The notes beneath the pieces were generated by a model. The model searched no databases. It was given only the letters and a program-made list of their open reading frames with translations, and had not been told where the DNA came from. Both the position numbers and the translations under genes were made by a program. From Patescibacteria group bacterium (GTDB taxonomy: Bacteria > Patescibacteriota > Minisyncoccia > GWA2-38-13b), in assembly GCA_038065195.1 (NCBI GenBank), contig JBBTRL010000046.1:1-10762 (forward strand): a stretch of 10,762 nucleotides of DNA, read 5' to 3'. Below, piece after piece: positions 730 to 10,762 of the stretch (its first letter is position 1; each line of letters starts with the position of its first letter).

Positions 730-741
730 TAAACAAAAAAA

Positions 742-768
742 ACCTGACGCAACCGCGCCGGGTTTTTA
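742..768 (+). terminator. Rho-independent terminator downstream of the 358-729 gene
   Basis: The stem ACCTGACGC / GCGCCGGGT (9 bp, one mismatch) has loop AACC and is followed by TTTTT. An A-run precedes it, so it may also act on the opposite strand. Confidence 0.5.
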
Positions 769-813
769 ATTTAATACCTAAATACTTTGAATTACGAAAT
801 ACTTTAATTCAAG

Positions 814-850
814 CTTGCGCCCCGTCTACCTACGGTAGACGGGGCGCAAG
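814..850. repeat. GC-rich perfect inverted repeat (16-17 bp arms, 3-5 nt loop) between convergent genes
   Basis: cttgcgccccgtctac-c-tac-g-gtagacggggcgcaag. It is a perfect palindrome with very high predicted stability and sits in an otherwise AT-rich intergenic region. No U-tract follows on either strand. Confidence 0.5.
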
Positions 851-909
851 AACTGCGCGCAAAAACTGCATTTCATAATTCAAGATCTGTAAATAATTTT
901 AAAACAAAC

Positions 910-2211
910 TCACCTACTTTTCTTTTTTCGCATCTTTTTTTCTTCGTCCGAAAAAATATTGATTTTACCGTATTCGCCGTCATAGCCTGGAATTATATTT
1001 AATTTTCTTTCCCTAACTCGTTTTACTCCCTCGGCAATTTTAACATCGGAAACTTGAGCAATATTGTCAATTGACGCATCAAGTAAAATGCTGAATTCGT
1101 TGCCAAAACCATTTATCAATGCTTTGTATTTTTCAAATACCATTTTTGTGCTAACGCCCACGCCGTAAACATCGCCGATAATTTCTTCCAAAGGAACTAA
1201 ATTTTTGAATGGTACGGTATTCTGTAGTTTTTCGCTTTCTTTTCTGTCCGCCAATTTATCCACCCTATTCATAACACCGATGGTTAAAGGATGTTTGCAT
1301 TTGGGACAAATGTTATTATGCGCTTTACTTTCTTTGGGACTGAATATTATATCGCAATCTCTATGACCGTCGTAATGATACTTTCCTTCTTCCGGAAAAA
1401 ATTCAACCGTATAAATAAATTCTTTGGAGTTTTTATCCTTTATCATTCGCACGATATCGGCGTAGCCCGTTTTCGCCGTATCCGCGACTTCAAAAACATT
1501 CGCTTCACGGCCGATTTTATGCAAAGAATGGGCATCGGAATTGGATATCAAAGAAATACCATCAAGTTTGGAAAGTCGCCTATTCATCGCTGGGTCCGAC
1601 GAAAGACCGGTTTCAATGGAAAAAATATACTTGGAATATGCGTCAAAACATTCCTCAATCGTATCAAATCCGGATTTTGACCCGAAAATGGAAAACCAAG
1701 GCGTCCAGACATGCGCCGGAACAATCAAGCACTGTGGCGAAGCATTCAAAACGATTTTAGTCAACTCTTTGACGTCCAACCCCAAAATCGGCCGACCGTC
1801 AGAACGCAAATTTCCAATCCGACCAAGTTGAACATTTATTTTTTCCACTGCTTCAAAATCGGGCGCGAAAACAATAATATGAATTTTACGAACTTTATTA
1901 TTTTTGGAGTATATACAGCTTATTTCAGTGGTTAAAATAAATCGTAAGTCGTTTTTTAAAACCCCCGAAAAATCATTATCTTTAATTTTATATGCATCTT
2001 TTAATCGAAAAAGTCCGTTATCCAATTCCAATTTTTCTTTAATTTCCTTAAACCAAACGGGGTGCGTGAAATCGCCGACAGAAATTACATTTATGCCCTT
2101 TATTTTTCCCCATAAATCCAAATGCTCCAAATCCATTTCTGGACTGGTCGCGCGAGAATATTTTGAATGAATGTGAAAATCACCGATAAATCGCATGTTT
2201 TTATTATACAT
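910..2211 (-). CDS. PHP-domain metal-dependent phosphoesterase with a C-terminal zinc ribbon; endonuclease Q-like (TIGR00375-type family)
   Basis: The N-terminus carries GDFHIHSKYS (PHP HxH metal site). PAHVWTPWFS, SNSDAHS, GREANVFEV, GKYHYDGHRDC, CPKCKH and GYDGEYGKI motifs appear in the same order I recall for EndoQ-family proteins (about 420-430 aa). The ATG start is at 2209-2211 and the stop is TGA. Confidence 0.55.
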   Translation of the reverse strand: MYNKNMRFIGDFHIHSKYSRATSPEMDLEHLDLWGKIKGINVISVGDFTHPVWFKEIKEKLELDNGLFRLKDAYKIKDNDFSGVLKNDLRFILTTEISCIYSKNNKVRKIHIIVFAPDFEAVEKINVQLGRIGNLRSDGRPILGLDVKELTKIVLNASPQCLIVPAHVWTPWFSIFGSKSGFDTIEECFDAYSKYIFSIETGLSSDPAMNRRLSKLDGISLISNSDAHSLHKIGREANVFEVADTAKTGYADIVRMIKDKNSKEFIYTVEFFPEEGKYHYDGHRDCDIIFSPKESKAHNNICPKCKHPLTIGVMNRVDKLADRKESEKLQNTVPFKNLVPLEEIIGDVYGVGVSTKMVFEKYKALINGFGNEFSILLDASIDNIAQVSDVKIAEGVKRVRERKLNIIPGYDGEYGKINIFSDEEKKMRKKKSR

Positions 2212-2419: not shown

Positions 2420-4228
2420 ATGTCTAGTTTGTTGTTTGGTTTTTTATTTCTTTTAGCAGCTTTATTCGCACATCAAGTAAGCCATGTTGTATTGGGAAAT
2501 AAAAATAAAATATTCACGCTTAGCGTTAGATTTGTATGCGGAGCAATTGCCGTTATTTTAATATCTTCCTTGTCTTTCGTGTTTATTGGAGAAAATGAAA
2601 CCGGTCATCTCCATAAAATTTATGGCGGGAAAAGTTTGAAAGACGGCGCGATTGTGGCTGCCAAAGGCGAAAAAGGACCGCAAGCGGATATTTTAACACC
2701 GGGTTTCCATTTCAGACCGCTTTTAAGAATTATTTATAAAGTATCCAAAGAATCGGTTTTCATTGTACCGGAAGATAAATACGGTTTTCTTATCGCTAAA
2801 GATGGCATGCCAATGCGTCCGGATCAAACATACGCCGATGCTTTTAATCCAAACGAATTAAGAAGTATGCTTTATGACGCACGATATTTTTTGGAACATA
2901 ACGGACAGAAGGGTCCGCAAACAACCGTCTTGACTCCAGGAACTCATCGTCTGAATAAATTTATTTGGGATATAAAGCTGGGTGATATAACGGAAGTTCC
3001 CGAAGGTTTCGTGGCAGTTATAAAATCAAATGTATGGTCACGAGTAGATTTCGGCAATCTTAAAACGGAAAAACCGGAAAATATTTCCCCGGTAAAAACG
3101 GATGAATTTACGGGAAGGGACTTAAAGGTCCCGCTTGTACCGGTTGGAGCTATCGGAATATGGGAAAAAGCCTTAAATCAAGGCAAATACTATATTAATG
3201 AGCATGCCTACAAAGTTATTTTATTCAATACAAGGGCCAATACATGGGAATACAAAGGAGGCTACACAAAACGTCGTATTGACTTAATGATAGATGAAAA
3301 CGGGAAAATAACTCAAAGTGAATCAAGCACCACCGTACCTGTCCCCGCAAATGCCGCCGATCCAGCTATTGAAGTAAAGGTTGAAGGATGGTCAATCCCC
3401 TTGGAATTGCGAGCGCTTGTCCAGGTATCGCCGGAAAGCGCGCCTTATGTGGTTGCTTCCGTAGGTGGTTTGCAAGAAGTTGAAGATAATATTTTAACCC
3501 CGATTATCCGTTCAGTTGTAAGAAATGTGACGGGCGGAACAATCAATGTTCCGGCAGACGATCTCTCTGGTAAATCAACCAACCGGCCAACCCGAGTACT
3601 TGATTTAATGATTAATAGGGGTGTACTGGAACAAAATATCGAAGACCAAATACAACCAGAAGGTCTGAAAGCCGGAGTTGATATAAAGGAAATCCGATTT
3701 GGCGATCCAGCCATTCCTCCCGAACTGCTTCTTGCCTGGCAAAGAGAACAATTAGCGCAACAATTAAAAAAAGCTTATACTCAAGAAAAAATCGCGCAAG
3801 ATGAAAGAATAACCACAGAAAAGGCTAAGGCAACAGCGAACCAACAGTCAAAACTCGTGGAATCGGAAATCGAAGTAAAAAGATCCGAGCAAGCAGCGAT
3901 GGCCAGGCAAAACGAAGGAACGGGAGAAAAAAATAAATTAACATTGATTGCCCAAGGACAAAAAGAACAGGTAGAGGTTTTGGGACCAGACAAAGTGGTT
4001 GAATTAAGAAAATATGAGCTACTCTTAACTACTTTGATAAATTATTTTGACAAACACCCCGAAGTATTAACGCAAGCATTATCTAACGCGCATAAATTTG
4101 TACCCGAAAGAGTATTTAGCATAGGTTCGGAAAATAAGGGAACAGATCTGATGGGCGCGGCGGGAATATTGGGAGATTTTTTAGGTCAAGAAAAACAAAT
4201 AAAAGACAATAGTCGAGAAAAAAAATAA
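2420..4228 (+). CDS. SPFH/Band-7 (flotillin/YqiK-like) membrane protein, 602 aa
   Basis: Two N-terminal hydrophobic helices are followed by an SPFH-like core (AAKGEKGPQADILTPGFHFRPLLRIIYKVS ... beta-rich region). The C-terminal region is long, Q/E/K/A-rich and coiled-coil-like (QREQLAQQLKKAYTQEKIAQDERITTEKAKATANQQ...), which is typical of flotillin-family proteins. The ATG start has an upstream AAGGA. Confidence 0.6.
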   Translation: MSSLLFGFLFLLAALFAHQVSHVVLGNKNKIFTLSVRFVCGAIAVILISSLSFVFIGENETGHLHKIYGGKSLKDGAIVAAKGEKGPQADILTPGFHFRPLLRIIYKVSKESVFIVPEDKYGFLIAKDGMPMRPDQTYADAFNPNELRSMLYDARYFLEHNGQKGPQTTVLTPGTHRLNKFIWDIKLGDITEVPEGFVAVIKSNVWSRVDFGNLKTEKPENISPVKTDEFTGRDLKVPLVPVGAIGIWEKALNQGKYYINEHAYKVILFNTRANTWEYKGGYTKRRIDLMIDENGKITQSESSTTVPVPANAADPAIEVKVEGWSIPLELRALVQVSPESAPYVVASVGGLQEVEDNILTPIIRSVVRNVTGGTINVPADDLSGKSTNRPTRVLDLMINRGVLEQNIEDQIQPEGLKAGVDIKEIRFGDPAIPPELLLAWQREQLAQQLKKAYTQEKIAQDERITTEKAKATANQQSKLVESEIEVKRSEQAAMARQNEGTGEKNKLTLIAQGQKEQVEVLGPDKVVELRKYELLLTTLINYFDKHPEVLTQALSNAHKFVPERVFSIGSENKGTDLMGAAGILGDFLGQEKQIKDNSREKK

Positions 4229-4239
4229 ACGAACACATG

Positions 4240-4274
4240 AACGCCTTGTGGATTAATTCCATAGGGCGTTTTAA
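4240..4274 (+). terminator. Rho-independent terminator after the SPFH gene
   Basis: The stem AACGCC / GGCGTT encloses an inner TGG..CCA sub-stem and is followed by TTTAAAATTT. Confidence 0.45.
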
Positions 4275-4332
4275 AATTTAAAAAACGTACGATACGAACT
4301 CACTAGAATTGACCGCGGGAAATTATTGTATT

Positions 4333-6162
4333 ATGATAAAAAAGATGAAAAATCTTATAAAAAATATATTTATCATAATACTGATATTCTTCATACTGTC
4401 AGCAATTTTTACATTCTATTCTTCAACCAACGAACCGAAAGAAATAAATTTATCGCAACTCATTGAAGAAATAAACCAAGAACAAATTGCAAAAATCACC
4501 ATCAAAGATAATAACCTTGAAATAGATCTTCGCGACGGAACGAAACAAATCTCAAAAAAAGAACGCGAATCCTCGTTAACAGAATCTTTAAAAAATTATG
4601 GGATTGAACAGAATAAAATCAACTCTTTGAATATGAAAATTCAGGAACCGTCTGGAACTATGTTTTGGATAGGCAGTATTTTGCCGATCGCCCTTCCATT
4701 TATTTTAATAATATTTTTCTTTTGGTTTTTAATGCGACAAGCGCGGCAAGGTTCAATGCAAGCGTTTTCTTTCGGCGAATCGCGCGCCCGTTTTATTTCC
4801 CCGAAAGATAAAAAAGGCAGAATAACATTTAAGGATGTTGCCGGATTGGAAGAAGCCAAAGAAGAATTGAAAGAAATTGTTGATTTTCTGAAAAACCCCA
4901 AAAAATATACCGACATCGGAGCTAAAATCCCCAAAGGCGTTTTATTGATGGGTCCGCCCGGAACCGGCAAAACCCTTCTCGCCAAAGCCGTAGCCGGAGA
5001 AGCCGATGCGCCATTTTTCAATATTTCCGGATCGGAATTCGTGGAAATGTTCGTTGGAGTCGGCGCGTCCCGCGTTAGAGATCTTTTCAAAAATGCCAAA
5101 AAAAACGCGCCAGCCATTGTTTTCATTGATGAGATTGACGCGGTTGGCCGGCAACGCGGCACCGGACTTGGCGGAGGTCACGACGAACGAGAACAAACTT
5201 TAAATCAAATTCTCGTGGAAATGGATGGATTTGATACCGATACCACTGTTATTGTAATAGCGGCAACCAACAGGCCAGATGTTTTAGATCCGGCGCTTTT
5301 ACGACCGGGAAGATTTGATCGGCGCGTTATTTTAGACAATGCGGATATCAAAGACCGCGAAGCGATACTTAAGATTCATAGTCGTAATAAACCGCTTGAT
5401 AAAACCGCAAATTTACGGCAAGTCGCGGAAAGAACTCCTGGATTCTCCGGAGCGGATTTGGAAAATCTGATTAATGAAGCGGCAATTCTAACGGCGCGAA
5501 AAAATAAAAAAATAATATCGCAACACGACATATTAAGTTCAATTGAAAAAGTTTTATTGGGACCGGAAAGAAAGAGCCATATTCTTTCCAAAAAAGAAAA
5601 AGAAATCGCCGCTTTTCACGAAGCCGGACACGCTTTAGTCGCGGCAAGTTTGCCTAATGCCGATCCTGTCCACAAAATCTCCATTATTTCGCGCGGACGA
5701 GCTGCCGGTTATACGCTTAAACTGCCAATTGAAGACAAGCAACTTTATTCCCGTTCTTATTTTTTGGACGAATTAGCGGTTTTACTCGGCGGGTACACTT
5801 CTGAAAAACTCATATTCAATGAAATGACGACCGGAGCATCCAATGACCTCCAAAAAGCATCAGAAATAGCAAGAAAACTTGTCCGTCAATATGGAATGTC
5901 TGATAAAATAGGACCGGTAACATTCGGCGAAAATGACGAATTAGTGTTTTTGGGACGAGAAATCGGCGAACACCGCAACTATTCCGAAGAAATAGCGTCA
6001 AAAATAGATCAAGAAGTAACACGATTCATTGACGATGCCCAAAAAACGGCTAAAAAGATTTTATCTTTACATAAAGAAAAATTAGAAAAAATAGCAAGAA
6101 AATTAATAGAAAAAGAAGTGATTGAACAAAAAGAATTTAATGAACTTATAAAAGAACAGTAA
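4333..6162 (+). CDS. ftsH: ATP-dependent zinc metalloprotease FtsH
   Basis: There is an N-terminal transmembrane helix, a periplasmic-like segment, then a second transmembrane helix. The AAA+ module has Walker A GPPGTGKT, Walker [10 protein letters not shown] and [23 protein letters not shown]. The M41 protease has zinc motif HEAGHAL. The ORF track begins at a TTG at 4309. The first ATG is at 4333 (MIKKMKN...), with another at 4345. The stop is TAA at 6160-6162. Confidence 0.92.
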
Positions 6163-6238: not shown

Positions 6239-6251
6239 TATTATGTAAAGT

Positions 6252-6325
6252 GGGTATGTAGCTCAGCTGGTTAGAGCACGGCCCTTATAAGGCCGGGGTC
6301 CTTGGTTCAAATCCAAGCATACCCA
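6252..6325 (+). tRNA. tRNA-Ile with anticodon UAU (AUA-decoding)
   Basis: A 74-nt cloverleaf. The acceptor stem GGGTATG pairs with CATACCC, the D-arm is GCTC-AGCTGGTTA-GAGC (Ile-like body), and the anticodon stem/loop is CGGCC-CTTATAA-GGCCG with TAT at positions 34-36. The T-arm is CTTGG-TTCAAAT-CCAAG with discriminator A. CCA is not encoded. Confidence 0.85.
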
Positions 6326-6350
6326 TAGATGCAATCCCAACGCGTTCACT

Positions 6351-6622: not shown

Positions 6623-6955
6623 TTATAATCCGGAGACATCAATACCCAAAAACGAAGGAAGAACCTGCATCACAATAATCCACGCCAAAAATACAATCGC
6701 GACACCGGCAACCGTGTATATTATTGTAGACAAAGCCTTTTTTCTCGTCTCGTCATTTCCACCAGAAGTCATCCATTGAATGCCGGCAACAATTAAAAAC
6801 ACAACTGCCAATATAACGGCAAAGGCAAAAAACCAATTCATAGCCGTCTTAAAAAGAGCATATATCTCATCCAAATCGCCCACATTAGATTCGGTTGGCG
6901 GTTCAATCGGCTGAGCGTAAACTGTATTTATTATATTTGATAAAAAATTCAACAT
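6623..6955 (-). CDS. VirB2/TrbC-like T4SS-pilin-family small membrane protein (paralog 6, 110 aa)
   Basis: The core is NWFFAFAVILAVVFLIVAGIQWMTSGGNDETRKKALSTIIYTVAGVAIVFLAWIIV: two hydrophobic helices around a GGND..KK loop. The N-terminus is short and uncharged (MLNFLSNIINTVYAQP). The start is ATG, and an in-frame stop lies 9 nt upstream. Confidence 0.65.
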   Translation of the reverse strand: MLNFLSNIINTVYAQPIEPPTESNVGDLDEIYALFKTAMNWFFAFAVILAVVFLIVAGIQWMTSGGNDETRKKALSTIIYTVAGVAIVFLAWIIVMQVLPSFLGIDVSGL

Positions 6956-6966
6956 AAATAAACTTT

Positions 6967-7027
6967 AAAAGAAAATGACGGCGTCAAAACGAAAGTATTC
7001 CCGACGCTTTTACGCTCATTTTCTTTT
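6967..7027. other. Large imperfect palindrome in the 152-bp spacer between pilin paralogs 5 and 6
   Basis: The outer arms AAAAGAAAATGA (6967-6978) and TCATTTTCTTTT (7016-7027) are exact reverse complements. An inner stem GCGTC/GACGC and a GACGGCGTC palindrome lie between them. Confidence 0.45.
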
Positions 7028-7107
7028 GTTTATCTCCGCGCCTTTCCGTAAAATAAATATTTACAGCAAAGTGCGAAAATTCATTAAACGACCTTTAGAT
7101 AACTTTA

Positions 7108-7521
7108 TTATAAACTTATTTCATTTAATATATCACAAAAACTCGTACCGAACAAACCCAAAATCAAATCAAGCAAACCGGAGGCAAGACCGCCCGATTC
7201 TATATCTAATTCTCCTATCCCCAAAAATTTAGGTATAATCTGCTCAACTATTATCCTGGAAGCAAAAATAACCATTACACCGACTGCGGTAAAATATAAT
7301 TTATTTAATGCCGTTTTTTTTGTATCAACATTACCTCCGGCAGTCATCATGCTAATTCCAATAGAAATTGTATAAATAATAGCTACCACTATGGAAAAAG
7401 CAAAAAACCAATTCAATATTTTCAAAAAAAGACAATAAAGAACACCTACGGTGGGAACCGCCCCAATCGCGCCTATTCCGCTTTGCGCCCAAGCAGATTT
7501 AATAAAAAAATTTAATATCAA
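7108..7521 (-). CDS. VirB2/TrbC-like T4SS-pilin-family small membrane protein (paralog 5, 137 aa)
   Basis: The core is LNWFFAFSIVVAIIYTISIGISMMTAGGNVDTKKTALNKLYFTAVGVMVIFASRIIV. It begins at a TTG at 7519-7521, because the only in-frame ATG lies deep inside and a stop lies 15 nt upstream. Its N-terminus (M)ILNFFIKSAWAQ parallels that of paralog 6. Confidence 0.6.
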   Translation of the reverse strand: MILNFFIKSAWAQSGIGAIGAVPTVGVLYCLFLKILNWFFAFSIVVAIIYTISIGISMMTAGGNVDTKKTALNKLYFTAVGVMVIFASRIIVEQIIPKFLGIGELDIESGGLASGLLDLILGLFGTSFCDILNEISL

Positions 7522-7554
7522 GATCGTAATTGATTCTTATAATTTAAATTAACA

Positions 7555-8037
7555 TTAAATACCTGCGCCCATACGTGAAAAAATATTTCCAAGCAAACTC
7601 GCCCACCATACCACCTCGCATTTTACAGCGTAAATCGGTAATATAATCGCCTCAAAACCTGCCGTAAATACGCCCAAAAACATCGCAATCATTATTAAAA
7701 TAGATGTGGAAAGCAAAACTATGACAATTCCCACGAAAATCCATGATAAATTCTTATGAACGGTTGAAAGCGTTTGCGGATCTCCGGAAGCAAATATATA
7801 ACGAAGTCCGTTTATAATTAATAATATTATCGCAATCACAAGCGCAAAACTAAAAAGCCATGTCATAAGACGCAAAAATATGCAATAAACTACTCCTGTC
7901 GTAGAATCTATTCCTGGGGTATTTTTCAGCAACTCATCAAGATCCAATTCTTCCGCCAGCGCAAAAGCATAAAAACTAAAAAATAGCGTAAAAAATATTA
8001 TAGTATACTTTATAAATACAATTCCCTTATAAAACAT
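7555..8037 (-). CDS. VirB2/TrbC-like T4SS-pilin-family membrane protein (paralog 4, 160 aa) with an extra C-terminal hydrophobic extension
   Basis: It has a Sec-type signal peptide (MFYKGIVFIKYTIIFFTLFFSFYAFALA|EE). The core is LMTWLFSFALVIAIILLIINGLRYIFASGDPQTLSTVHKNLSWIFVGIVIVLL, followed by about 45 additional hydrophobic residues. The start is ATG. Confidence 0.6.
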   Translation of the reverse strand: MFYKGIVFIKYTIIFFTLFFSFYAFALAEELDLDELLKNTPGIDSTTGVVYCIFLRLMTWLFSFALVIAIILLIINGLRYIFASGDPQTLSTVHKNLSWIFVGIVIVLLSTSILIMIAMFLGVFTAGFEAIILPIYAVKCEVVWWASLLGNIFSRMGAGI

Positions 8038-8048
8038 AATAAATTTTT

Positions 8049-8519
8049 TTACGATCCGCTAACTTCTAAAATACTCCTGATAAAAGCGATGATGCTTGAA
8101 GAATTGATTAAAGCCTCCTCCGGCACCTCCAAAATACTCCTAACAAAAGCGATAATACCGCGACCAATCAATAAGACCGCAACGCCGACTATCAGCCAAA
8201 TCAACGCTGTTTTCGCTTTTCCAATTTGCGCGTCACCACCGCCGGCTGCAAAAAATAAAACACCAATATAAATCGTTAAAATTATGGCAAGCACAATCGC
8301 TACGGAATAGAAATATCTGGCAACCCTTTGCAAAATAGCCACCACATCATCCAATGTTAAATCAATGCCCTTGACGCCTTGTTCAGAATCTAGATCGTCA
8401 GTAGAAGTGCTGGTAGTCGCCTGAATCGGCGCGGCAAAAAATATACTCGCCACGAACAAACCGATAAAAAACAAAGCGCCAAATCGTAAAATATTTTTAT
8501 GCAATATTTGTTTTTTCAT
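8049..8519 (-). CDS. VirB2/TrbC-like T4SS-pilin-family membrane protein (paralog 3, 156 aa), recent duplicate of paralog 2 with an internally duplicated C-terminus
   Basis: It has a signal peptide (MKKQILHKNILRFGALFFIGLFVASIFFAAPIQA|TT). The core is YFYSVAIVLAIILTIYIGVLFFAAGGGDAQIGKAKTALIWLIVGVAVLLIG. The C-terminus reads IIAFVRSILEV-PEEALINSSS-IIAFIRSILEV, arising from a 63-nt tandem duplication (8065-8093 and 8128-8156, 25/29 identical). Confidence 0.7.
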   Translation of the reverse strand: MKKQILHKNILRFGALFFIGLFVASIFFAAPIQATTSTSTDDLDSEQGVKGIDLTLDDVVAILQRVARYFYSVAIVLAIILTIYIGVLFFAAGGGDAQIGKAKTALIWLIVGVAVLLIGRGIIAFVRSILEVPEEALINSSSIIAFIRSILEVSGS

Positions 8520-8595
8520 TTTAATTTATTAATAAATACCTTAAATAACGAAGCTTATTTCGTAATTTAAAATAAATAATTAAATCTTCTTTTAT

Positions 8596-9000
8596 CTATT
8601 CCACGCTCAACATATCTTTTATAAGAGTTATAAACCCCTGACCAATCAATAGAACCGCAACGCCGATCATCAGCCAAATAAATGTTTTTCTCGCTTTTGC
8701 GACTTGTTGATCGTTGCCACCAGCCGTAAAAAATAAAATGGAAGTGTAGATTACCATAATTGGAATCAGCGCAATGGCTATGTAATAAAAATAGTCAGCA
8801 ACTCTTTCCACAATATCTATTATTTCATCCGTTTCTAACGGATTGGGATATTCAATTGTAGTGCTACTGGCAACGATGCCAGTAGTGGTCGCCAAAACAG
8901 GCGCGACGAAAAATACGCTCGTTGCAAAAAATAATATGAAAAGTGAAACACCCAATCGTAAAATAATTTTCAATGATTTTTTTAAATTTTTACTCCCCAT
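8596..9000 (-). CDS. VirB2/TrbC-like T4SS-pilin-family membrane protein (paralog 2, 134 aa)
   Basis: It has a signal peptide (MGSKNLKKSLKIILRLGVSLFILFFATSVFFVAPVLA|TT). The core is YFYYIAIALIPIMVIYTSILFFTAGGNDQQVAKARKTFIWLMIGVAVLLIG. It shares about 85% nucleotide identity with paralog 3 over the core, for example 8639-8700 against 8161-8222. Confidence 0.7.
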   Translation of the reverse strand: MGSKNLKKSLKIILRLGVSLFILFFATSVFFVAPVLATTTGIVASSTTIEYPNPLETDEIIDIVERVADYFYYIAIALIPIMVIYTSILFFTAGGNDQQVAKARKTFIWLMIGVAVLLIGQGFITLIKDMLSVE

Positions 9001-9050
9001 AAAATAATTATACTCTATAAATCAATAAAATAATACAAAGACGACGATAT

Positions 9051-9464
9051 CTAACACTTGACCTTATACCATGGCCATGGAAATCCCGCCGGTTGATCGG
9101 CGCCGGAACCAGTCATCATTAATAAAATGGAATCTACAAGCAACCACGCTCCATAAATAATCAATGCGCCCATAACCACGCCGTATAAAATACTTTTCGC
9201 CCAAGCAAGTTGTTTCTCGCTGCCGCCTGAAGTGAAAAAAAGAATCCCGCTCGTAACTATAAGTAAAGCTGCCAACGGCGTAACTAAATCAATAATAATA
9301 AAATCAATTATTCCCTTTGACATAACAAAAAAATCGCATGTCGTGCAATCCGCCTCTCCTTCGCCACCACACGGAACCAAACCCGCCGCATTGGATGCCA
9401 ATGGCAAAAACACAAACAATACTGCCATAAACAATAATATAAATTGATATATTGATACTCTCAA
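9051..9464 (-). CDS. VirB2/TrbC-like T4SS-pilin-family membrane protein with an N-terminal Cys motif (paralog 1, 137 aa)
   Basis: After a Sec-like signal peptide (MRVSIYQFILLFMAVLFVFLPLASNA|AG) comes GLVPCGGEGEADCTTCDFF, the Cys-containing motif I associate with the CPR T4SS-pilin family. The core is LIVTSGILFFTSGGSEKQLAWAKSILYGVVMGALIIYGAWLLV and the C-terminus ends in ...YKVKC. The start is a TTG at 9462-9464, 14 nt after the stop of the SBP gene. An alternative ATG at 9426-9428 would leave no signal peptide n-region. Confidence 0.65.
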   Translation of the reverse strand: MRVSIYQFILLFMAVLFVFLPLASNAAGLVPCGGEGEADCTTCDFFVMSKGIIDFIIIDLVTPLAALLIVTSGILFFTSGGSEKQLAWAKSILYGVVMGALIIYGAWLLVDSILLMMTGSGADQPAGFPWPWYKVKC

Positions 9465-9478
9465 GTTTTTAATTTTTA

Positions 9479-10762
9479 TTATTTCCTATATAACACATTT
9501 ATCTGGTTTGCCGATTTTTCTATTGTCTGCCTAATTGTGGATTGCCCAAAAACAATTGATTCTATCATATCGGCAAATATTTTTTCAATTGCAACATTGT
9601 CAATCTGATACCAAGACTTAGCTGTAAGCGATTGCAACGCAAAAACCCCCAAGTGCGCCTTATCTTTTTGCGAATTAACTAAATCCCTTCTGGCCGTCGG
9701 TCTTTTTGACGCCTCCAAATATTTCAACGCATTATCTTTTAAGGCCATAAACTGAATAAAATGCCATGCCCATCCGGGATTTTTAGAATTTACAAAAACG
9801 GTTGGCGCCCAATAACCGGCATAAGAAATATTATTAGCGCTGCCGACGATTTGCGGAATCGCCGCAACACCGAAATTAAGATATGGCGCTTTATTTTTAA
9901 TAGTATCAATGTGATGAGAATAATTTATCATCATCGCGGTCTTGCCTTGGTAGAACGCGTCTATGGAATAATCCATTTCAGAATTCCATGTATAAACTTC
10001 TTTCTGAGGATTGGCAAAGTCCGTATAAAACCTCAATGCCTCTTCGCCTGCCGCGAACGGCTGACCATCTAAGGAAACAAATTTATCAAATATGACTCTA
10101 TTGCTTTGCGGATCAGTCATTTGCGTACCGGTCTGCATCATTAGAAGTCCAAGAATATCCGTGGAACGATTTATGTTTTTTGCCATACCAATGGCCGCGC
10201 CAGCCCTGACGATATTTCCGAAATCGTCTTTCTTGGTTAAAATTTTTACATCTTTAACGAAATCATCCCATGTTAACGGCGGTTCCGCTATGCCACTACT
10301 CTGAAAAATATCTTTATTCCAATATAAAGCCAATGTGTCCACAAAAAGAGGCAAACCGTAAATCTGATCGCCGACTACCAAATCCCGAAACGCCACATCA
10401 ACAAACGAATCCTTGAAGTTTTGAATTGTCATCATTGTTGGAGATAATGGAACGATCTTGTCTTTGTGTTTCGGAAGCCATGTATTATTAATACTCCAAA
10501 TATCCGGTCCCTTGCCGGCGGCAAAAGCGCTGATTAAATCTTTTTCATAATCTTCAAATGCCTTTTTAACATAAGTAATGGTTACTAACGGATACAAACG
10601 CTGATATTCCTTTATGATATCGGTAAAATAATTACCATTATCGTAAACACTCCAAAATTCCAAATCAATTTTTTTTGTTGACTTGGGTTTCTTGATGCCG
10701 AATACAATAGCAAAGACAACGATCAAAACAACCACGAAAACTACTCCTAAAAATATTATCCG
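9479..10762 (-). CDS. Extracellular solute-binding protein (ABC-type, family 1 / MalE-like), membrane-anchored; 5' end runs off the window edge
   Basis: The ORF stays open to the window end. The in-frame upstream codons encode RIIFLGVVF ahead of the listed GTG. An N-terminal transmembrane anchor is followed by KKPKSTKKIDLEFWSVYD. GKGPDIW and aromatic-rich periplasmic-binding-protein signatures appear throughout. The stop is at 9479-9481. Confidence 0.7.
   Translation of the reverse strand, partial: RIIFLGVVFVVVLIVVFAIVFGIKKPKSTKKIDLEFWSVYDNGNYFTDIIKEYQRLYPLVTITYVKKAFEDYEKDLISAFAAGKGPDIWSINNTWLPKHKDKIVPLSPTMMTIQNFKDSFVDVAFRDLVVGDQIYGLPLFVDTLALYWNKDIFQSSGIAEPPLTWDDFVKDVKILTKKDDFGNIVRAGAAIGMAKNINRSTDILGLLMMQTGTQMTDPQSNRVIFDKFVSLDGQPFAAGEEALRFYTDFANPQKEVYTWNSEMDYSIDAFYQGKTAMMINYSHHIDTIKNKAPYLNFGVAAIPQIVGSANNISYAGYWAPTVFVNSKNPGWAWHFIQFMALKDNALKYLEASKRPTARRDLVNSQKDKAHLGVFALQSLTAKSWYQIDNVAIEKIFADMIESIVFGQSTIRQTIEKSANQINVLYRK

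Follow-up and report, generated by a model that had tools for sequence, protein, structure and literature searches.

Published accounts present endonuclease Q (EndoQ) as mainly euryarchaeal and, for bacteria, mention "a limited number" of homologs, found in Bacillus and Desulfovibrio (PMC4357722, PMC5961232, PMC6202378). The metal ligands of the PHP domain and the essential residues Arg114 and His195 were defined in the enzyme of Pyrococcus furiosus (Pfu; PMC5961232), in which steric hindrance by His139, Gly169 and Ser171 keeps out T and A (review, PMC8307549). Archaeal EndoQ binds PCNA through a carboxyl-terminal PCNA-interacting protein (PIP) box and is stimulated by it (Shiraishi et al. 2016, PMC4858679). 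A mutant of the Thermococcus kodakarensis (Tko) enzyme that lacks the PIP box keeps its basal activity and loses the clamp stimulation, and beta-clamp motifs were noted in bacterial EndoQ homologs (PMC4858679).

The gene analysed here lies at the beginning of contig JBBTRL010000046.1 of a Patescibacteria group bacterium (assembly GCA_038065195.1). The complete stretch of 10,762 nucleotides that was studied is named the window. The gene very probably encodes a functional bacterial EndoQ, a reading based on homology, predicted fold, residue conservation and purifying selection. It is a full-length, ordinary member of a very large and mostly unstudied bacterial EndoQ clade.

Identity of the window protein

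The list of open reading frames (ORFs) of the window places an ORF of 433 amino acids (aa) at 910..2211 of the minus strand, as called in the initial annotation, which had left the strand unstated. The sequence blocks quoted there for an EndoQ-like PHP and zinc-ribbon protein are all found in this ORF, in the order claimed: GDFHIHS (residues 10–16), PAHVWTPW (165–172), SNSDAHS (223–229), GREANVFEV (234–242), GKYH (276–279), CPKCKH (302–307) and GYDGEYG (409–415). Residue numbering refers throughout to the 433-aa ORF. The family assignment was upheld by sequence, profile, predicted fold and residue conservation. Pfu EndoQ (5zb8, 7k30–7k33) is the only match of a phmmer search of all PDB chains (E=1.2e-51) and aligns with the window protein end to end (residues 9–421 versus 4–384 of the Pfu chain). 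The NCBIfam model TIGR00375 is matched over nearly its complete length (profile positions 3–374 of 374; E=1e-60, 206 bits). The AlphaFold2 model, for which 49 homologs were used (predicted local distance difference test score, pLDDT, 86.8; predicted template modelling score, pTM, 0.88) retrieves 5zb8 in Foldseek (E=4e-33, template modelling (TM) scores 0.80/0.86) and the DNA complex 7k30 (TM 0.79/0.86). Its superposition on 5zb8 and 7k30, the structural comparison proposed initially, gives TM scores of 0.79–0.88 over ~425 columns that comprise all three domains. The EndoQ architecture (PHP, Zn-binding and carboxyl-terminal helical domains) can thus be aligned over the full length of the protein. 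Precomputed annotation assigns PF27218 (MJ0043_C) to it, and a 52%-identical Parcubacteria relative (MBU4421791.1) is named "endonuclease Q family protein" by NCBI.

There is next to no probability that the gene codes for another PHP phosphoesterase (histidinol phosphatase, Pol X or Pol III PHP, RNase AM-like) or for a UvrD helicase. What speaks for such a function is the Pfam-A scan, which gave only a weak sub-threshold match to PHP_C (in a Pfam copy without PF27218), and the name "DNA helicase UvrD" carried by close relatives in GenBank. The Pfam and NCBIfam scans, however, found no match to other PHP subfamilies (histidinol phosphatase, Pol X/Pol III PHP, RNase AM, BAD_1165-type), and the next-best structures (PsfC, BAD_1165, RNase AM and the Pol III alpha PHP domain) fit the barrel only, with TM scores of ~0.3 and E values of 3e-6 or weaker. 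The best match therefore does not fall in another PHP subfamily. UvrD-helicase (PF00580) and UvrD_C (PF13361) are absent from the window protein in the Pfam scan, and the UvrD label is accounted for by homologs in which EndoQ is fused to UvrD (see below). The phmmer match in the PDB, the Foldseek result and the Pfam layout of the fusions exclude this alternative.

Catalytic, pocket and zinc-binding residues

The Pfu numbering was rebuilt from the alignment, checked against the residues named in PMC5961232 and mapped onto the window protein and 120 close homologs. The Pfu metal ligands H8, H10, E76, H84, H139 and D193 correspond to window H13, H15, E96, H111, H167 and D226, the essential R114 and H195 to R140 and H228, and the pocket residues G169, L170 and S171 to G202, L203 and S204; they are invariant in the 121 sequences. 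Pfu W144 is window W172 (conserved in 119 of the 121), while K243 and Y244 are K277 and Y278 (Lys in 117, Tyr invariant). Window K356 and Y414 map to Pfu K320 and Y377. All residues of Pfu EndoQ that are essential according to mutation are thus present in the window protein. Relative to Pfu, the PHP domain has insertions of 16 aa at ~63–88 and of 6 aa at ~99–105.

Several features weigh against a functional EndoQ. The TIGR00375 score of the window protein falls short of the curated cutoff (326.6 bits), so that of the profile check the near-full-length match stands and the threshold is missed. The characterised enzymes (Pfu, Tko, Methanosarcina acetivorans, Bacillus pumilus/B. subtilis) lie outside the clade and are 25–31% identical to the window protein. 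The Pfu DNA contacts of moderate effect R251 and K276 are replaced by D285 and T310 and are unconserved in position. The first ligand of the putative zinc site is His instead of Cys, and loss of the carboxyl-terminal motif described in the next section could lower the efficiency of the enzyme in vivo. Note that TIGR00375 is a narrow archaeal "hypothetical equivalog" model. It gives 430 bits to Pfu EndoQ, 264 to the Brevibacillus protein and 190 to the Parcubacteria protein P0161; the last two are already named EndoQ family by RefSeq/NCBI and both score under the cutoff, which therefore fails to delimit the family. An invariant Arg (R284) is found one residue from the R251 position, next to H283.

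The putative zinc ligands of the window protein are H283, C286, C302 and C305 (His-Cys3; GKYHYDGHRDC...CPKC), versus Cys249, Cys252, Cys268 and Cys271 (Cys4) in Pfu. Ligand-capable residues fill all four homologous positions, but a strict Cys4 set is not found. His occupies the first position in all 121 close homologs counting the window protein, in 146 of 150 representatives clustered at 50% identity and in 81 of the 87 sequences of the phylogenetic tree (Cys in six, including four archaeal proteins and that of Brevibacillus). Since His is present there in nearly all homologs, His-Cys3 is the clade-wide form of the putative zinc site and no local defect.

The carboxyl-terminal tail

The extreme carboxyl terminus has the form Q-x-x-[LMI]-[FWLY] (QxxLF) in 107 of the 120 close homologs. 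QxxLF is a form of the bacterial beta-clamp-binding motif, which is accessory to the enzyme and has no part in catalysis. The same ending is present, across phyla, in most of the 80 EndoQ copies taken from species genomes; the results on species loci given here and below rest on the best 80 of at least 600 loci (48–67% identity). EndoQ–UvrD fusion proteins end in the canonical QLxLF. The window protein has no QxxLF motif and ends in ...DEEKKMRKKKSR, a lost clamp-binding tail that is the only individual peculiarity of the window gene. Its DNA was compared with that of two relatives (L005, 11185–11335; L006, 1215–1365). In the DNA alignment the codon of the motif Gln is TAG in the window, CAG in P0002 and TAA in the 84%-identical P0004. 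The P0002 tail reads ...AKEEK-CAG(Q)-ASLF-stop, and a three-frame translation of the window gives DAKKEK-stop-VSLF-stop in the old frame. The same tail allele is found in three strains or samples (L001–L003), so the lesion is no assembly error.

It is very unlikely that the gene is decaying, with the mutated carboxyl terminus as the onset of pseudogenisation and a non-functional product. Two lesions at the 3' end, the stop at the motif Gln codon and a 1-nucleotide deletion, in a motif that is otherwise kept in the large majority of relatives counted above, are what suggests decay. The 421-residue body with all catalytic residues is nevertheless intact, the allele is shared by the three strains or samples, and the dN/dS ratio is 0.11 versus two relatives at 83–84% identity, including in the lineage pair where both members are without the motif. 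The gene body is under purifying selection. Because the Tko mutant without a clamp motif keeps its basal activity (PMC4858679), with the low dN/dS in support, the window enzyme probably acts without the clamp, a dead enzyme being disfavoured.

Two ways of restoring the motif were rejected. Recoding of TAG to Gln does not agree with the use of TAG and TAA at the end of other window genes, with the TAA of P0004 at the same codon, or with the clean reading of ftsH and other conserved genes in the standard code. A programmed -1 shift at the in-phase A_AAA_AAG would not bring the motif back either, since the old frame hits TAG ahead of it.

Two copies from Micrarchaeota (L056, 2407–3630; L060, 5950–7263) are of the bacterial type, with His-Cys3 and 50–51% identity. 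Their tails, QKSLDEFF and QRGLGEYL, are PIP-like (Qxx[L]xx[FY][FL]) instead of QxxLF. The EndoQ gene of L060 adjoins Cdc6/Orc1 and is near an RFC-like gene, which identifies the contig as genuinely archaeal. As read from these termini, the EndoQ tail type tracks the apparent clamp type of the host, QxxLF in bacteria and PIP-like in the two Micrarchaeota copies, a parallel to the interaction of the archaeal PIP box with PCNA (PMC4858679). The Micrarchaeota copies suggest a cross-domain transfer in which the clamp motif was swapped to fit the host.

Association with UvrD helicases

A length of at least 900 aa is found in 121 of the best 150 representatives clustered at 50% identity (P0121–P0270). 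Most representatives are fusions of ~1000–1200 aa that comprise EndoQ at residues 1 to ~420 followed by the UvrD-helicase and UvrD_C domains (Pfam). Besides the carboxyl-terminal QLxLF, a second motif, Q..L[FL], is often present where the two parts meet. No description of an EndoQ–UvrD fusion was found in the literature searched.

UvrD-like sequence is fused, adjacent or near to EndoQ in 18 of the 80 species loci. Eight long products (864–1174 aa) overlap the UvrD match (L052, L058, L064, L068, L074, L076, L077, L085), and in L066 a contig end cuts the product, which also runs into a UvrD match. The UvrD gene is directly downstream in about six loci (L038 from Peribacteria, L049, L062, L073, L081, L084), while in L016, L021 and L086 the UvrD match is more distant or on the opposite strand. 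This organization hints that the helicase takes over at the nick made by EndoQ. UvrD was not found within the accessible 10–20 kb around the window gene, its strain variants and the genome copy of P0004. In public annotations the label "DNA helicase UvrD/II/PcrA" is carried by stand-alone EndoQ proteins (P0004, P0051, P0080, P0113 and P0366) of Patescibacteria and, in UniRef, by one of Thermococcus barophilus. It appears to have been propagated from fusion proteins, the name having spread from true EndoQ–UvrD fusions to their stand-alone relatives.

Distribution and phylogeny

At least 8000 protein clusters match the window protein at E≤1e-5. The best 120 of them are stand-alone proteins, 59–100% identical, and those with a named source come from Parcubacteria, Patescibacteria and Wildermuthbacteria. 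Among representatives clustered at 50% identity there are 3780 matches at E≤1e-3 and 1007 at E≤1e-30. With one genome scanned for each GTDB species, EndoQ is found in at least 600 of them, spread over many bacterial phyla. The best 80 loci include Patescibacteria (Portnoy-, Nealson-, Gribaldo-, Sung- and Peribacteria, Paceibacterota, Minisyncoccia), Omnitrophota, Nitrospirota/Thermodesulfovibrionia, Thermodesulfobacteriota, Aminicenantes, Planctomycetes, Latescibacterota, KSB1, Bipolaricaulota, Chloroflexi, Margulisiibacteriota and Fibrobacterota, in addition to two metagenome-assembled genomes (MAGs) of Micrarchaeota. The statement that EndoQ is only sporadic in bacteria reflects the literature of 2015–2018 and is superseded by these numbers, as is the published view of an essentially archaeal enzyme with few bacterial exceptions. 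In bacteria the prevailing form combines the His-Cys3 site with a beta-clamp-type tail and frequently a UvrD fusion. No paper naming both EndoQ and Patescibacteria was found in the literature search, which also yielded no usable survey of repair genes in the candidate phyla radiation.

Some EndoQ homologs carry inteins. Intein_splicing and LAGLIDADG domains are present in P0121 (794 aa) and P0131 (1331 aa; also with a helix-turn-helix domain), whereas in P0123, P0124 and P0259 inteins are deduced from the protein length and from the way the query match is split. These inserts sit within the PHP domain, several of them around the PAH...TPW and ETGLSSD regions.

A neighbour-joining (NJ) tree of 87 sequences (415 trimmed columns), approximate and without support values, was drawn with the Bacillota type as outgroup. 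A homolog search with the Pfu query had only Thermococcales among its best 120 and added little archaeal diversity to the tree. P0002 and P0004 join the window protein in a group that lies among Patescibacteria, inside the large bacterial clade, and Thermococcales form a separate long branch. The GC content of the gene (0.374; 0.364 at third codon positions) is close to the window mean (0.373). Parcubacteria GW2011_GWA2_38_13b, whose EndoQ gene is 84% identical, has the same neighbourhood: solute-binding protein, an array resembling type IV secretion system (T4SS) pilins, FtsH, Band7 and EndoQ. Nesting in Patescibacteria, native GC and shared synteny leave the suggested inter-domain transfer unsupported for the window gene, and there is no sign of a recent event of this kind into the window genome. 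The only clear cross-domain case seen is that of the bacterial-type gene in DPANN archaea. The phage collection has no EndoQ homolog and the plasmid collection a single match, a Brevibacillus megaplasmid; there is therefore no evidence of carriage by mobile elements.

Proposed mode of action

By homology with P. furiosus EndoQ, the window enzyme would bind duplex DNA, bend it, and flip a deaminated nucleotide (deoxyuridine, dU; deoxyinosine, dI; deoxyxanthosine, dX) or an abasic (AP) site into the pocket beside the PHP metal centre. H167, G202, L203 and S204 of the pocket would sterically exclude the methyl group of thymine and the amino group of adenine. The phosphodiester bond would then be hydrolysed immediately 5' of the lesion to leave a 3'-OH and a 5'-phosphate, and a strand-displacing polymerase or a 5' nuclease, followed by a ligase, might finish repair. 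We infer this substrate range and position of cleavage, as well as clamp binding and the downstream steps, from the sequences of the window protein and its relatives. The QxxLF tail and the fusion or adjacency to UvrD suggest that excision in these relatives may be clamp-tethered and helicase-coupled; the window copy, stand-alone and with the clamp motif lost, would probably work clamp-free.

A function other than repair of deaminated bases is unlikely. The EndoQ fold might have shifted in role or specificity, to restriction of uracil-containing phage DNA or to another lesion or structure. Bacillus EndoQ is possibly antiviral and is uninhibited by the phage inhibitor Ugi (review, PMC8307549), the clade differs from Pfu by the His-Cys3 site and the PHP insertions, and the frequent UvrD fusion is a pathway context unlike that of archaea. 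On the other hand, the pocket and base-excluding residues are invariant, and factors of replication and repair are the proteins that typically have a clamp-binding tail. PADLOC defence models and PHROGs gave no meaningful match, the phage collection lacks homologs and the plasmid collection has only the megaplasmid one, and the window neighbours are housekeeping genes without a defence island.

Starting from the repair function, a broader scheme can be put forward tentatively, to which we give somewhat less than even credence. EndoQ of this clade might be the entry to a clamp-tethered, UvrD-coupled and nick-directed excision of deaminated bases that would be no sporadic import from archaea but widespread in Patescibacteria and many anaerobic uncultivated phyla, with tails swapped to fit the host and the window lineage as a natural variant that shed the tether. 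In small-genome Patescibacteria one nuclease for dU, dI and AP sites would economically replace several glycosylases and AP endonucleases. At the scale of the window, the outcome is a correct function for a gene that is publicly unnamed or mislabelled "DNA helicase UvrD", which is of little importance; the points at family level are possibly useful to researchers in DNA repair and in the candidate phyla radiation (CPR).

Gene features and neighbourhood

The protein start was reconsidered. An identical protein (P0001) is called with 428 aa in four public contigs (Hainich groundwater 0.2-µm metagenomes) and in the NCBI MAG GCA_964360735.1. In the homolog alignment Met6 is near-invariant at the amino terminus (at least 90% of sequences), the consensus start being MxFIADFHIHS. 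Because of these public calls and of the Met6 conservation, Met6 (ATG 2196–2194) is most likely the true start, giving the predicted coding sequence (CDS) listed in Table 1. No convincing Shine-Dalgarno sequence was found upstream of either candidate ATG (2211 or 2196).

Table 1. Features of the EndoQ gene and of its 3' region in the window
Feature	Coordinates	Strand	Description
EndoQ CDS	910..2196	minus	Probable start at Met6, 428 aa; longest ORF from ATG at 2211, 433 aa; stop TGA 910–912
PHP catalytic domain	1396..2196	minus	Residues 6 to ~272; residue mapping onto Pfu
Zn-binding (zinc-ribbon) domain	1195..1395	minus	Residues 273–339; alignments
Carboxyl-terminal helical domain	949..1194	minus	Residues 340–421; PF27218 MJ0043_C; ends in GYDGEYGKINIF strand pair
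Aberrant carboxyl-terminal tail DEEKKMRKKKSR	913..948	minus	Replaces the usual QxxLF-ending tail; carboxyl termini of 120 homologs
A-run GAAGAAAAAAAGATG	931..945	minus	1-nucleotide deletion (in A7 run) versus P0002 and P0004; last 7 codons frame-shifted
Relic of clamp motif, old frame	899..916	minus	TAG GTG AGT TTG TTT TAA = stop-V-S-L-F-stop
3' untranslated region (UTR)	735..881	minus	Nested hairpin, then terminator-like hairpin with U-run 735–762 (terminator scan)

The 3' UTR folds with -68.9 kcal/mol (z=-7.8 versus shuffles). Downstream of the EndoQ stop, the nested hairpin (789–881) consists of an outer AT-rich stem of 14–16 bp (866–881/789–802) and an inner GC-rich stem of 16 bp with a 3-nucleotide loop (815–849). 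Its apex differs in sequence in L002 and L003 yet stays self-complementary (TACC-GTA-GGTA versus CCGCA-GTAT-TGCGG). An Rfam search of the whole window gave only three tRNAs, the 3'-UTR hairpin matching no known family.

A 602-aa SPFH/Band-7 protein is encoded directly upstream of FtsH (2420–6162, plus strand), and this pair is conserved beside EndoQ in L005. It is reminiscent of the HflK/C–FtsH partnership. Six small membrane proteins are coded in tandem on the minus strand (6623–9464). PF18895 (T4SS_pilin) is matched by five of these proteins, in one case with a score under the curated cutoff, and some of the proteins match TrbC/VirB2 as well. After the array comes a gene for an ABC-type solute-binding protein (9479–10735). 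L005, the related Parcubacteria genome, has the array conserved. A tRNA-Ile with UAU anticodon (loop CUUAUAA) is found at 6251–6326 (plus strand) and may relate to the decoding set. In most bacteria AUA is read by a lysidine-modified CAU tRNA, a UAU isoacceptor being uncommon.

Comparison with known systems

The window protein and Pfu EndoQ (PF1551; 5zb8, 7k30–7k33; archaeal "family 1") share the same three-domain architecture at 31% identity (TM 0.79–0.88). They have in common the PHP ligands, R114 and H195, the G-L-S pocket, W144, K243 and Y244, and the GYDGEYG-type carboxyl-terminal strands. The window protein differs from Pfu by a His as first putative zinc ligand, by the 16-aa and 6-aa PHP insertions, by unconserved R251 and K276 positions and by the absence of a PIP box. 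The PIP box of Pfu type is replaced by QxxLF in bacterial relatives, and the window copy is without even QxxLF.

EndoQ of Bacillota, of the B. pumilus/B. subtilis type, was reportedly characterised by Shiraishi and colleagues in 2017. Its representative in this analysis, the protein of Brevibacillus laterosporus (WP_031414379.1), is stand-alone, as is the window protein, and agrees with it in domains and catalytic residues. It is 24.8% identical to the window protein, which makes it more distant than Pfu. It keeps the Cys4 site, has TPH where the window protein has TPW, is without the GRP motif, and stands as outgroup to the archaeal and window clades in the NJ tree.

The closest relatives are those of the Patescibacteria and multi-phylum clade (MBU4421791.1; the GW2011_GWA2_38_13b protein, which bears the label "DNA helicase UvrD"), with 48–84% identity and the same His-Cys3 signature (GKYHxDGHRxC), insertions and domain order. 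Members of this clade mostly end in QxxLF and many have UvrD fused or encoded downstream, whereas the window copy has neither.

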